In this document: piece after piece, positions 12,101-27,100 of the stretch
Position numbering within the stretch: the stretch's first letter is position 1
Layout: each line of letters opens with the position of its first letter
Assembly: GCF_963921235.1 (NCBI RefSeq)
Contig: NC_086097.1
Location: 29,390,001-29,454,000, forward strand
From: Mobula hypostoma
Taxonomy: Eukaryota
DNA length: 64,000 nt
Direction: 5' to 3'
Position numbers and translations under genes: made by a program
Notes under the pieces: model-generated
Databases searched by the model: none
What the model saw: only the letters and a program-made list of their open reading frames with translations
Told to the model about the DNA's origin: nothing

Positions 12101-15100
12101 CATGACCGGTTAAAGAACCAGTAGAAATAGAAAACACTTTGGAGTCTGGTATTGCTATTCACCAATACTATTTATTAGTAACTACACAATACAGTCATAT
12201 AAATTCAGATATATTAAACAGGTTAGCAGAGACTTTATGTATATAAGTGTGGAAACAGAGAAACCAAGCTTCTTCAAGCCTAGGGGGTAAATAGATACAG
12301 TCTTACGGTGATGGGTAAAGTTCAGCTCAGTTCGTGGTATTGAGTCGAGTAGTGATGGAGAGAGAGAAATATTTGTAATCCAGGGTAAATGTTGAGAGAA
12401 GGCAATTATGTTGATATTCAAGATTTCACGACAACAATACAAAATAACAATAGTAGTGGGTTTTATCTCCAAAGTTGTTCCACTCCACACACAAAATATC
12501 ACCAACAGTGATCTTCAACGAATATCCTTCCAACACAAGTGGTACCACACCCGAAATCAGTTACGGGTCATTCCAGTGGTGGCCACAGGATACTCAAACA
12601 GAATCCACATAGGGATTATCACCAACAGTAGCTTATCACTAAGGGGACCCTCTTCAAGGGAACCAACCCCAAACACATAACGTGATAGCCACTTATCCAG
12701 TTCCACGACATACGAAATAACTCCAACAGTGATTTGCCACAGGGTGCCTTTCTTCAGTGAGCTACCACAGCCAAACAAGGGTAACACACAAGTCGTATTC
12801 ACAAAGATACTCCCCTCACCAGAGAACCCACTCTTGTGGATTAACTACATGACAGTCACACCTTCGTATTCAAATGGAACTCAAACTCACCCTCACGGGC
12901 TACTTAGAGAGAGAGTCCAAACAGTGACCTTTGTCACTAGGTTTCTTCTGTTTCAAACCTATCTCTCCTCTCTTCTCTTCCTTTAAAGTCACTGAATGTG
13001 CCCACAAAACGGGGACAGTTTTCGGTGCTGGAGTTATCAACCCAGGCAAGGGTTGGACACAGGAATAACTCCCTACCGGTCACACCTTTCCCACACTGCA
13101 AGAGCCACCGATCGATCCTCGGGAAACCCACCTTTCTGTGGGCACAACAAAGCTCATCCGGTGTCCAAAACCATGTGTCTGTCAGTCTATCAGCTGACCT
13201 TCTATTTATCTCACCATGCTAAGCACCAGCTGTCCATCAAGTAGCTCCTCCCTTCTCTCTCTGCAAGAACACAGAAGCTGGCAGTGTCCTTACAAAAGTG
13301 TAAACATGCTGCAGAGAAACCATAACACCATCTCAAAGCAGTCTATGCCCCCCTCCTCTCAATAATAAGGTGTTTGTGTTGAACAACTCTTTTACTCTTT
13401 TTAAAGGTATAGTCCATAAAAAATATGACCCCTAGGGGTACATAACAGTACAGAGAAGGATGTAAAGTGGCTTCATAGAAATAAAAACAAGTCGAATGAG
13501 TGGATGAGAACTTGCATGGAATACAATTTGGAGAGGTCAATCACATGGATGCATGTAACAGAAAGGAACTGTAGCTGTAAAACTGGGGACTTCCGGTAGC
13601 GCTCATGGAGTGAAGTCGCGTTCTTGACTCGCTCCATTACCTCTGAGTTTTTTTACTCTATGGTCAGCTATACTTTAATTAACCATTAAGGCATCAATTT
13701 TTATAATACTTTGAATTAAACTGAATTCTCTGACAATTGGATGATACTTGATCTGCTATGTCTAAGAACGGGAAAAACGGCAAGGATGGTAAACCTTCGG
13801 CTAAACCGAAAGCTACGGATCTCCCTCCGACTGAATCACCGGTGACTTTGAAAGCGATATCGGAGTTAATTCAGAGGGAAATTTCAACCTCTGTTAGGGA
13901 GATGATTCGTACGGAAATTGCAGGCTTTGTTAAAGATCTGATTCATGCGGAAATCTCAACTAATTTCCAGAAAATTGCCGATTTAATTGATAAGATGCAA
14001 ACATGTATTGCGGAACATCAGTCGGCTATATCTGATCTTCAAAAATTCGCGCAACAAAGAGAGCTTAAGATGGGGAAAATCGAAGAAACAATTAATGTAA
14101 TGAAGAAGAAACTTGACTTTTTGACTTTTAAAAACTCTGACTTGGAATCTAGAATGCGACGGCAGAATTTACGAATGATCGGCGTGAGAGAAGCCGTTGA
14201 AGCTAACAACCCCATGAAATATTTCTCTCAACTTTTAAAAGATGCATTCCCTACTGTATTTCCTGACCAACCACCGCTACTGGATCGTGTTCACAGAATC
14301 CCATCATACTCGTCTAGGTCAGATAGACCTAGGCATGTTATTTTACGTTTTCATTACTTTCAAGACAAGGAGAGACTGTTTCGATTCGCTCGATCTAAAG
14401 GTTTCATTGATTTTTCGGATCTTAAGTTCCGATTCGTGGAAGATTTCAGTAAACCAATCTGGGACCAACGGGTCCGTTACAGATCCGTGATGTCGGAATT
14501 CTATAAGATGGATTTAAGACCAGCGCTGCTGTACCCTGCACGTCTAAGGATTCGCATGTTAGATGGAGCCCTTCGTTTTTTTGATTCTCCATCGGATGCC
14601 CAGAGTTATCTGGATCAACTTTCATCTTCAACATCTTAATTGCCTTTTTTTTTTAATTTTCTCCGTTGATCGGAGGCTGTGAATTGGTTGGTTTTAACTT
14701 TTCTGTGCCCTATTTGGGCAGAAAAGTTTACTTTTGATTTCTTAATATGGCTGCTAAACTTTCTTTTTAACTGCGTCATTTCTTTCTTTTCCCAGGGGAT
14801 TCTGGGTGGTTACTTCCCTTTTGTCATCTTACGTATTTCCTGTGTGGCCTTAAATTTTGTAGTTTTTTTTAAAATTTTATTCTGTTTTGCTTTTTATAAT
14901 CACTTTATGTTAATAATCCTATTTTTTTTTGTTGCTGTGTCTATTCATGAGTTTGAGGTTTATTGTGGTTTTTTTTAATATATATTTTCCGGCTTTTGTT
15001 CTGTTCTGTGTGTATTCTAATTGAGCTAACTTTTTTTTTACTTTATTTTTTTACTGTTTTACAATTAGCTGATCCTTTTCATATTTATACCTTTTTTTTA

Positions 15101-24100: not shown

Positions 24101-27100
24101 TGCGTATTTGGTTTCAATTCAGAAAATTTTTTGATCTTAATCAATTCGGGTTAGCGATTCCTATTTTAGGTAACATATTTTTTCCTCCCTCTTTTACGGA
24201 TCGCGCTTTTCAAACTTGGAAGACTAAGGGTATTTTACGGTTTTTGGATTTATTTTTAGATGGTTCCCTTATGTCTTTTGAACAATTATCTAATAAATAT
24301 AACTTATCAAGAATACATTTTTTTAGATATTTACAAGTTAGAAATTTCCTAAGTACTATACTTTCTTCCTTTCCAATGCTTCCTCCTATATATATTTTAG
24401 ATTCGATAATTAACCTTAATCCATGTCAGAAAGGTGCATCGGCTATGATTTATAATATTATTATGAAACTTAGGAAAGTTCCATTTGATAAGATTAGGGT
24501 AGATTGGGAACAGGAATTGGGGCTTACCATTTCTGTGGATGATTGGGGGCAGATTTTACAATTAGTTAATACTTCCTCTATTTGTGCTAAACATTCCCTA
24601 ATTCAATTTAAAGTGGTTCATAGAGCACATATGTCCAAAGATAAGTTAGCGCGTTTTTACACGCATATTAATCCTTTCTGTGATAGATGTTCGGGGCAGA
24701 TAGCCTCTTTAACTCATATGTTTTGGTCTTGCCCTACTTTGGAAACTTTTTGGAGAGATATTTTCAATATTATTTCTAAGGTATTAAATATAGATATCTC
24801 TCCTCACCCTATTACTGCTATCTTTGGACTACCTAAAATTTCTAGTAATCTTTCCCCTTCAGCCCGTAGAATGATTGCATTTCTTACTTTGATGGCGAAA
24901 AGATGTATTTTACAACATTGGAAAGAGCTTAATGCTCCAACTACCTTTTTTTGGTTTTCTCAGACGATTTTATGTTTGAATCTGGAGAAAATTAGAAGTA
25001 ACCTTTATGATTCTTCATTTAAATTTGAACAGATTTGGGGACCTTTTATTCGATATTTTCATTTAATGTAATATTTACCCTTCTTGTTCTTTTCTCACTG
25101 TTTTAATGGAGGTCGGGATTGAGGACGTGATTTTAAGTTTAACTCTGTTTGGTTTCAAGTTAGCCCATTGCTTTGCTTTGCTTTTAGTTAGTTGCACGGT
25201 GGGTTTTTTTTTGGGTTTTTTTTTTCTTTTTTTTCCATTGATATATATAAAATCTAGTATACTATTATGTTATCTTGGTTTCTTATGCTTAAATTACATT
25301 GTTTGTAGTATTTTCTTTTTGGTATTGTTATCTTTTGGAATTTTATTATACTTTAACATTGTATTAATGTTTATATGGCTTACCTTTTTTGTATACTTAC
25401 TCAATAAAAAGATTTAAAAAGAAAGAAAAGCTGTAAAACTGTAGCGTTGATGTTTAAAATTACCTAAATTTGCTTGTATACATCAACAAAAGCCAACAGG
25501 AAAGTGCAGTAAGCAAGGGGTGGGGGGGCGTAGGGGTGCGCAAATGGCATGTTAGCCATTACTACTTTGTTAGAAATCAGGAGAAAGGAAGTGTAAACTG
25601 CAATATCCTATTCTGGCTGGCTGCCGGTTACCAGTGGAGTACCACAGGGGTTGGTGTTGGGACCAGTACTTTTTACGATGTAATGACTTGGACTATGGTA
25701 TTAATGGATTTGTGGCTAAATTTGCCGATGATACAAAGATAGGTGGAGAAGCTGGTAGTGTTGAGGAAACAGAGAGCCTGCAGAGAGACTTAGATAGTTT
25801 AGGGGAATGGGCAAACAAGTGGCAGATGAAATACAACATTGGAAAGTGTATGGCCATGCACTTTGGTGGAAGAAATAAATGGACAGACTATTATTTAGAT
25901 GGGAAGATAATTCAAAATGCAGAGATGCAAAGTGACTTGGGAGTCCTTGTGCAAGATACCCTAAAGGTTAACCTCCAAGTTGAGTCCGTTGTGAAGAAGG
26001 CGAAGGCAATGTTGGTATTCTTTTCTAGAGGTATAGAATATAAGAGTAGGGATGTGATGTTGAGGCTCTATAGATCACTCATGAGCCCACACTTGGAATA
26101 TTGTGCAGTTTTAGGCTCCTTATTTTAGAAAGGATATACTGACATTGGAGAGGGTTCAGAGAAGATTTACAAGAATAATTTCAAGAATGAAAGGGTTACC
26201 ATATGAGGAACGTCTGGCAGCTCTTGGGCTATATTCCCTGGAGTTCAGGAGAATGGGGGGGGGGGAATCTCATAGAAATATTCTGAATGCTATAAGGCCA
26301 TTTAGAACCAAGATGTAGAGAAATTGCTTTAGTCAGAGGGTAGTAAATCTGTGGAATTTGATGTCACAAGCGGCTGTGCAGGCCAAGTCATTGGGTGTTA
26401 TTAAGGCAGAGATAGATAGGTTCTTGATTACCCAGGGCAGAAAGCAGGGGAGTGGGGATGACCGGAAGAATTGGATCAGCCCATGATTGAATAGCAGAGC
26501 AGACTCGATGGGCTGAATGGCCTGCCTCTGCTCCTATAGTCTTATAATAATAATAATAGGGGCCGAGTAAAAACACACTCAGAATATGGTTTTGGTTTCT
26601 TGCAGACGGAATTCAGCGAAGGCTCACAAGATGGTTTCAGGGATGACTGGCTTGCTGTAGGAGGAAAGATTGAGTAGCTTGGACTGCATTCTTTAGATTT
26701 CAAATGACAGAGAGGTCTGAATAAAACATACAAAATTCTTAAATGGCCTGACTTGCTCTGTAGGACTAGGAAGCAAAGTTTGAGAAAAAATGTAGACGAC
26801 CATTTAAGATTGAGGTGATAAGTTTCTTACTCTTTGAAACCATGAAACTCTCTGTCCTCAGCAGCTATAGAATGTCAGCTGTTTAGCTCATTTGAAGGTC
26901 AAGCGATTCAAGGTTTTTGGGGTTTAGTGCAGGAGAGTGGCGCTGAGGTAGAAGGTAAACCATAACCATGATGAATGACAAGGCAGCGCCGAGGGCAGAA
27001 TGGCCTATTCCTGCTCATCTGTCTATATCCTTACACGTACATACTCCATTCCACTTACTGCTTTAGGATAGCACTGTCTTCGTTTTGTGGAACCTGGTCT

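Follow-up and report, generated by a model that had tools for sequence, protein, structure and literature searches.

How does one full-length L1 element come to lie within a sibling of nearly the same sequence, and does such a nesting call for anything beyond ordinary retrotransposition? We address these questions for a pair of elements in the DICER1 gene of Mobula hypostoma, in a window of 64,000 nucleotides (contig NC_086097.1), the whole stretch of DNA analysed here. In a tblastn search of the window with shark Dicer, 16 DICER1 exons were placed in order on the minus strand. The intron that hosts the elements, which we take to be DICER1 intron 14 in human numbering, is flanked by exons corresponding to residues 697-744 and 744-804 of shark Dicer, and the nested L1 stack makes up 11,856 of its 15,813 bp. 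An initial annotation had described an 11.8-kb stack in a 15.8-kb DICER1 intron, a view that exon order, GT-AG ends and these lengths bear out; to it we add that both L1 copies are antisense to DICER1.

The insert, a full-length L1 of 5,912 bp, interrupts ORF2 of a sibling of 5,914 bp and has the same orientation (Table 1). The order of nesting can be read directly from a self-BLAST comparison, in which 13588-16909 aligns with 16912-20228 (97.9% identity) and 20212-22820 with 22822-25428 (99.3% identity), giving the A-A'-B'-B order that is the pattern of nesting. Each element is bracketed by its own target-site duplication (TSD): the outer one, AGCTGTAAAACTG, has two exact occurrences in the whole window (13573 and 25429), and the inner one, AATAGAGCATCAATTTC, has three, at 16893 and 22822 as the TSD and at 20212 as native sequence of the inner ORF2. 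The probability that such an exact match arises by chance at a given position is 2e-8 for the 13-bp outer and 1e-10 for the 17-bp inner TSD. Both copies begin with G(G/A)GACTTCCGGTA and end with AATAAA and a short A/GAAA tail, which is not pure poly(A). The exact matches and the self-BLAST thus confirm the nested 13-bp and 17-bp TSDs, the two 5' ends and the two tails of the initial annotation. The inner site it had given, tttt/aata (slash, insertion point), is indeed AT-rich, but we refine the relevant site to TT/AATA on the top strand, one mismatch away from TTAAAA; the outer site, GT/AGCT, is non-canonical.

Table 1. Features of the nested L1 stack and its host intron (window coordinates)
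Feature	Position	Strand	Remarks
Host DICER1 intron	11246..27058	-	15,813 bp; GT-AG ends on minus strand
Outer TSD, left copy	13573..13585	+	13 bp; exact match to 25429-25441
Outer L1 5' UTR	13586..13757	+	172 bp; starts with GGGACTTCCGGTA; resembles zebrafish L1 5' consensus GGACTTCCGGTT (PMC5381506)
Outer ORF1	13758..14639	+	293 aa, open; PF02994 E 9e-10; human ORF1p E 3e-15
Outer T-rich inter-ORF region	14640..15365	+	726 bp; long T-rich spacer as in fish L1
Outer ORF2, 5' part (endonuclease and linker)	15366..16909	+	514 codons without stop; PF03372 E 4e-14; ends in inner TSD left copy
Inner TSD, left copy	16893..16909	+	17 bp; at TT/AATA
Inner full-length L1	16910..22821	+	5,912 bp; 5' UTR, ORF1, spacer, ORF2, 3' UTR, tail
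Inner ORF1	17083-17964	+	open; PF02994 above cut-off
Inner ORF2	18685-22462	+	+1 frameshift near 21215; human ORF2p E 1.5e-165
Inner TSD, right copy	22822..22838	+	17 bp; reading phase same as left copy
Outer ORF2, 3' part (reverse transcriptase with YADD, C-terminal CCHC motif)	22839..25071	+	PF00078 E 1e-38; open to TAA
Outer 3' UTR	25072..25428	+	357 bp; AATAAA and A/GAAA tail
Outer TSD, right copy	25429..25441	+	13 bp; exact match to 13573-13585

With the insert removed, the outer ORF2 runs from the ATG at 15366 to the TAA at 25069-25071 over 3,774 nt (1,258 codons) and contains no stop, so that the earlier claim of a restored, open 1258-aa ORF2 holds. The inner TSD lies in phase 0 of this frame on both sides, neither half carries a stop, and contigs of the family run from 16909 into the 3' part of the outer ORF2, with 1 of 30 letters differing. 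Frame reading and sequence likeness likewise support the earlier statement that the outer element was interrupted by a relative, and that of two recent successive insertions is supported as well. Its description as potentially active agrees with the intact frames but is tempered by at least two amino-acid changes absent from the family contigs. The inner element has a 5' UTR of 173 bp and a spacer of 720 bp (48% T); its ORF2, at 3,775 nt, carries an extra A near 21214-21215 (AA versus A), which may be a sequencing error, and halts after 845 aa. As assembled, the locus would give no full ORF2 protein, the outer one being interrupted and the inner one frameshifted, and neither copy would count as retrotransposition-competent, neither being a contiguous element with both ORFs intact. 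What it keeps are two putative promoters and two open ORF1s, with no function implied.

We assign the family to the L1 clade, provisionally, on its ORF1 type, 5' terminus and best hits rather than on a tree. In both copies, ORF1 is of the L1 type (coiled coil, RRM and C-terminal domain; PF02994 above cut-off); its match to human ORF1p (E 3e-15) covers query residues 100-278, a simple scan finds a heptad pattern near residues 64-135, and identity to the 10 relatives listed is 34-39%. ORF2 is also of the L1 type, with PF03372, PF00078, the catalytic motifs and CX2CX8HX4C, and among solved structures human L1 ORF2p matches best (E 1.5e-165), with R2 proteins at E 1e-24 or weaker. Besides the L1 insertion marks (TSDs of 13 and 17 bp, AATAAA, short A/GAAA tail), both copies bear those of fish-type L1: a 5' UTR of 172 or 173 bp with a GGACTTCCGG terminus and a T-rich inter-ORF region of 726 or 720 bp.

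The inner and outer copies differ by 75 substitutions (1.27% divergence). Within ORF2, 19 of the 26 differences are synonymous, where neutral decay predicts 21-31% (P about 1e-5 or less), and pN/pS between the copies is 0.10; this synonymous excess argues that they diverged as active lineages. The copies thus stem from two source lineages, neither having been copied from the other. Indels of the inner type, at 14645 and 14922, are common to other copies in organism A (see below), and two sub-lineages seem to coexist, differing mainly in the N-terminal and coiled-coil part of ORF1. Codons 1-130 of ORF1 hold 24 differences (Fisher test, P 5e-11) at a pN/pS of 1.03; this value is not above 1 and gives no demonstration of positive selection on the coiled coil. 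Gene conversion between the copies as the source of the higher 3' identity is rejected, because the two halves of ORF2 differ evenly (14/1,544 in the 5' half versus 12/2,233 in the 3' half, P 0.23), and the excess of differences falls in the 5' UTR, the ORF1 N-terminus and the spacer. A stretch of 609 bp without differences surrounds the inner insertion point (P 0.06).

Reads from 4 of the 23 sequencing runs listed were compared with the window over 11000-16950. In organism B, a 383-nt contig matches 13422-13585 and continues with 219 unlike letters; in organism H, a contig matches up to 13586 and continues with 181 unlike letters. No matching L1 stands behind the TSD in these two relatives; compared with the window, their flanks carry 23 differences in 1,248 letters and 44 in 1,149, respectively. 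Judged by where the match ends, organisms B and H fit an empty site at the outer TSD. The earlier proposal that empty, single and nested alleles may segregate gains no support from this, since the likely empty site belongs to two other organisms. Organism A (runs X2 and X3) is identical to the window along about 1,100 bp of flank and is possibly the window's own source, hence not independent; among its contigs listed, 13422-13585 is uncovered and the allele state there unreadable. No contig or joint across the inner junction 16909/16910 was seen among those listed (32 contig pieces out of a set with 91,786 more; 24 of 1,871 loose ends). A single ORF1 contig of 115 nt that agrees with the window at every letter is covered to a depth of 4,392, about 630-940 times the 4.7-7 of single-copy flank from that run. 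This suggests a family of roughly 600-900 near-identical copies, a figure taken from the depth of one contig that may include 5'-truncated copies.

Given these observations, we consider it probable, at roughly 0.86, that the stack arose when ordinary target-primed reverse transcription took place twice, independently, in a recent burst of a fish-type L1 family. A full-length copy of sub-lineage one would have inserted antisense in the DICER1 intron, leaving the 13-bp TSD, and a full-length copy of sub-lineage two would later have entered ORF2 of the first, at an AT-rich, endonuclease-type site, leaving the 17-bp TSD. We infer this mechanism from TSD, tail and complete 5' end; both insertions are probably young and the choice of target was probably due to chance. 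If the family has 300-1,200 full-length copies and the genome is assumed to measure 2.5-4 Gb, chance predicts 0.07-3.4 full-length-in-full-length nestings per genome. The nesting is real and recent, yet about at chance level given the hundreds of fresh copies in the family, and a single one is unremarkable because this expectation covers it and L1-in-L1 insertions are already published.

Self-targeting like that of Zepp, in which the family favours either its own members or this site in ORF2, possibly through pairing of incoming RNA or cDNA with the homologous host copy, is an alternative that we regard as highly improbable. In its favour, the copies share their orientation although target sites with at most one mismatch number 101 in the same and 177 in the opposite orientation, the former being fewer because the family is T-rich, which makes the orientation found here the less probable of the two. 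The difference-free 609 bp around the site also fit, as do the hotspots in targeted elements and the sense bias reported for human L1-into-L1 insertions (PMC2836564) and the clusters of nested copies built by Zepp (PMC3446292). Nevertheless, this is a single event, already covered by chance: one of the two insertions in the window lies inside a sibling, while the outer copy, itself a family member, was inserted at an unrelated target in intron sequence that is not L1. Among the 24 of 1,871 loose ends listed, none bears on position 16893, and two joints put L1 5' ends beside a short high-copy repeat and not ORF2, a weak indication with sides of 24-33 letters.

Direct repeats of 3.3 kb (97.9%) and 2.6 kb (99.3%), whose family counts its copies in the hundreds, could also have led the assembly to merge a nested junction from elsewhere, or from another haplotype, via the 99% identical ORF2; none of the reads listed is a spanning one. 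This, too, is very unlikely: at the inner junctions, non-homologous sequences meet and an endonuclease-type site is duplicated over 17 bp, a configuration that overlap assembly does not generate; the outer halves differ from the inner ORF2 at the similar rates given above; and a single outer TSD brackets both halves, with exons in order on either side. That a single element was duplicated locally or through unequal crossing-over has hardly any probability. L1 copy number can change through local duplication, as in a chromosome 11 array (PMC13192797), but the process predicts a head-to-tail arrangement, not A-A'-B'-B with a new TSD, and it must contend with 75 substitutions, those in ORF2 mostly synonymous, and with an inner copy that begins at the family's 5' terminus. 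TSD and synonymous excess already go most of the way to refuting it.

The direct repeats of the stack would be a substrate for deletions of 3,324, 2,610 or 5,929 bp, a route described for direct, highly similar L1 stretches (PMC9675761). The earlier idea that recombination between 20212-21214 and 22822-23824 rebuilds an intact element takes this route and is sound in its geometry (a 2,610-bp deletion), but nothing shows that it occurred, and no deletion product of the DICER1 locus was observed. On the DICER1 strand, the stack contains 35 AATAAA hexamers, 3.0 per kb compared with 0-1.3 in five other intron stretches; there was no sign of exonization on this strand, with 0 sites for a strict acceptor pattern and 4 for a donor pattern. 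Two wider readings, independent of each other, are long shots: that, during its burst, this L1 family of a ray-like fish prefers the ORF2 of its own full-length siblings, guided by homology and, like Zepp, so that the burst limits itself by disabling its sources; or that the 35 antisense AATAAA of this T-rich family in DICER1 pre-mRNA lower full-length Dicer, which in mouse stem cells holds L1 in check (PMC5292673). As a single locus, the stack matters little, being a clean example of a known event, but it marks the presence, in a cartilaginous fish, of a young L1 family whose near-identical copies number several hundred. If it segregates, it would serve as a marker with three states and would put deletion between direct L1 repeats to a natural test, and it would matter more if the family were self-targeting or if DICER1 transcripts ended early in the stack.

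Among the best-matching titles, with subscription journals mostly outside coverage, none deals with this locus or describes full-length L1 elements nested in one another in cartilaginous fish. The elements resemble fish-type L1, e.g. of zebrafish, for which a mean 5' UTR of 0.16 kb and inter-ORF spacers of 257-1,032 bp are reported (Boissinot and Sookdeo, PMC5381506), in their length of ~5.9 kb, 172-bp 5' UTR, GGACTTCCGGTT-like terminus, 726-bp T-rich spacer, 3,777-bp ORF2, T-rich 3' UTR and CX2CX8HX4C motif. They differ in their short A/GAAA tail tract and in coming from a cartilaginous fish, the word 'shark' being absent from that paper's main text. Zepp of Coccomyxa is likewise a LINE nested in its own kind, but forms 26 clusters, about one per chromosome (PMC3446292), whereas here a single nesting has its host copy in ordinary intron sequence. 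In the human genome, 21,559 sense and 9,899 antisense L1-in-L1 insertions were counted, a bias suggested to inactivate the target (Levy et al., PMC2836564), and here, too, an L1 interrupts an existing L1 in the same orientation. In contrast to those counts, which as presented do not separate full-length pairs of the same age, both elements here are full-length, only 1.27% apart and with the host frames otherwise open; and unlike human L1, this family is T-rich on the sense strand, which reverses the strand bias of its target sites.

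The two L1 copies within DICER1 represent, with a probability of roughly 0.86, a real and recent nested insertion between L1 sub-lineages: a member of one would have inserted, by the ordinary mechanism, into a member of another. In the self-comparison of the window, direct matches follow the order A-A'-B'-B and pair 13588-16909 with 16912-20228 (97.9%) and 20212-22820 with 22822-25428 (99.3%). The 13-mer target-site duplication (TSD) of the outer, first-inserted copy (13586-25428 with the insert) is found at 13573 and, within the window, again only at 25429. The 17-mer TSD of the inner copy (16910-22821) lies at 16893 and 22822; its further copy at 20212 is the native position in the inner ORF2. 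Both elements start with G(G/A)GACTTCCGGTA, resembling the zebrafish L1 5' consensus GGACTTCCGGTT (PMC5381506), and are therefore 5'-complete. At the 3' end, each has AATAAA followed by a short A/GAAA tail; the lengths are 5,914 bp (outer, less the insert) and 5,912 bp (inner). This order, both TSDs and the complete 5' ends bear out the initial annotation, which had described an L1 inserted into its sibling. Its uninterrupted outer ORF2 of 1,258 codons is likewise confirmed, since the inner TSD is in phase 0 and the frame is open to either side of it. The passage from 16909 to 22839 is the native join, because contigs of other family members continue that way, with 1 of 30 letters different. 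The inner ORF2 contains a single additional A and ends at 845 residues.

The elements encode an L1 RNA-binding domain in ORF1 and an endonuclease and a reverse transcriptase in ORF2, and the closest solved structures are human L1 ORF2p (E 1.5e-165) and human ORF1p (E 3e-15). To judge by their sequence, they fit fish-type L1 as described in PMC5381506, with which they share a short 5' UTR, a T-rich spacer (720-726 bp) and a cysteine motif. In tblastn, 16 DICER1 exons appear in order on the minus strand (residues 136-1081); among the matches listed (120 of 330), one exon of the window agrees at 100% with the Dicer of a bamboo-shark cluster representative, at 99% with that of elephant shark and at 95% or less with the others, which makes the host a cartilaginous fish. 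The stack of both copies lies antisense to DICER1 and occupies 11,856 bp of a 15,813-bp intron after residue 744, presumably intron 14 in human numbering.

An assembly error behind the nested junctions is unlikely: while no read crosses the inner junctions among the matches listed, these lack homology across them and have a proper TSD. Assuming 300-1,200 full-length copies, a 2.5-4 Gb genome and sites enriched one- to twofold, chance predicts 0.07-3.4 full-length-in-full-length nestings per genome, of which about one third to one half would have both copies in one orientation; a single nesting is rare for one window and unremarkable for one genome. The element has more TTAAAA-like sites (at most one mismatch) than the rest of the window, with strand densities of 17 and 30 per kb versus 12 and 10. 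In human, L1 is the most frequent target of nested insertions, with 21,559 sense and 9,899 antisense L1-in-L1 cases and a suggested role in target inactivation (PMC2836564), and the present pair is a fresh instance of a kind of event already known. There are weak hints of homology-guided or self-targeted insertion, as in Zepp, a LINE that nests in its own kind (PMC3446292): site counts in this T-rich family favour the opposite orientation, and for 609 bp about the insertion point the copies show no difference (P 0.06). Against this, the outer copy itself sits at a non-canonical site in ordinary intron sequence, which argues for loose site specificity. That either self-targeting or a damping of DICER1 is at work is very improbable.

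The divergence of the copies (75 substitutions, 1.27%, and 14 gap columns) gives no date for the insertions. ORF2 differences are synonymous in 19 of 26 cases, where neutral decay predicts 21-31% (P about 1e-5 or less), and pN/pS is 0.10; most of the divergence therefore arose while both lineages were active. Differences cluster in ORF1 codons 1-157 (24 in 471 bp versus 26 in 3,777 bp of ORF2; P 5e-11). In ORF1, the 11 amino-acid changes are all confined to codons 7-108, and pN/pS drops from 1.03 in codons 1-130 to 0 in the remainder, a pattern in keeping with the variability already known for the N-terminus and coiled coil (PMC5381506); two sequences are insufficient to tell selection, relaxed constraint and recombination apart. 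A 36-bp repeat of 2.4 copies in ORF1 (13869-13954) holds four of the 11 amino-acid differences, three being multi-base codon changes, which might stem from exchange between repeat units.

Contigs from 4 of 23 listed sequencing runs were compared with window positions 11000-16950. A 383-nt contig from organism B matches 13422-13585, through the TSD's last letter, and continues with 219 letters unlike L1; one from organism H matches up to 13586, followed by 181 such letters. This points rather directly to an empty outer site in both, whose flanks diverge from the window by 1.8% (B) and 3.8% (H). Organism A may be the source of the window DNA, its flank contigs being identical across about 1,100 bp. 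One of its ORF1 contigs, 115 nt long and without a difference from the window, reaches a depth of 4,392 versus 4.7-7 in unique flank (~630-940 fold). When depth is summed across the 5' half, a measure that is no copy number, B is far lower than A, and H has zero at 13587-14382. At a minimum of three positions (15179, 15595, 16413), 99-100% of A's depth carries the inner copy's letter (among 40 of 233 such entries listed), which makes the outer copy's letter a private or rare variant; at two of the three it alters the amino acid. Some three changes of this private kind within 3.3 kb would date the outer insertion to late in the period after divergence from B, and the inner one is younger by its nested position.

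Features in and around the L1 stack
Feature	Position	Strand	Location	Remarks
ORF1 codons 1-130	13758-14147 (outer), 17083-17472 (inner)			region of pN/pS 1.03
48-bp minisatellite	48188-49060		DICER1 intron	18 copies, 94%; >300 codons open in four frames
Reverse-transcriptase frame, 450 codons, open	56391-57740	+	DICER1 intron	presumably CR1 type
Three decayed repeat copies, 76-83% alike	13-1435, 37355-38894, 54021-55375			open frame of acidic composition; probable remnant of a DNA transposon

Adjoining the stack on its left is a 1.36-kb repeat (about 12084-13446) that has short inverted termini and a GTAC-like duplication and appears solo-LTR-like; an organism H contig skips over it, and a copy with 635 added bases lies at 59492-61400 (89.9%). 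Immediately to the right, 25574-26128 is an older relative of the tabulated reverse-transcriptase frame. The short repeat at 11542-11629 has a very high copy number (summed depth >100,000 in all four runs), and two joints, the first found in both A and B and the second in A alone, connect its copies to an L1 5' end, which suggests full-length L1 insertions elsewhere.

At present, the stack encodes no full ORF2 protein. Its direct repeats would allow deletions of 3,324, 2,610 or 5,929 bp, and deletions between direct L1 copies are documented (PMC9675761). The initially proposed recombination to an intact element is geometrically possible, but no deletion product was observed. On the minus strand, that of DICER1, the stack holds 35 AATAAA motifs (3.0 per kb versus 0.9 elsewhere in the window), which makes premature polyadenylation of DICER1 transcripts within it conceivable. 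In mouse embryonic stem cells, Dicer keeps L1 in check (PMC5292673); to link these motifs to such control is speculation. The sense (plus) strand of 13586-25428 has only 10, and the antisense surplus arises because the L1 sense strand is T-rich (27% A, 39% T). This is the opposite of A-rich mammalian L1, and antisense intronic copies of such T-rich elements may be more disruptive in this group.
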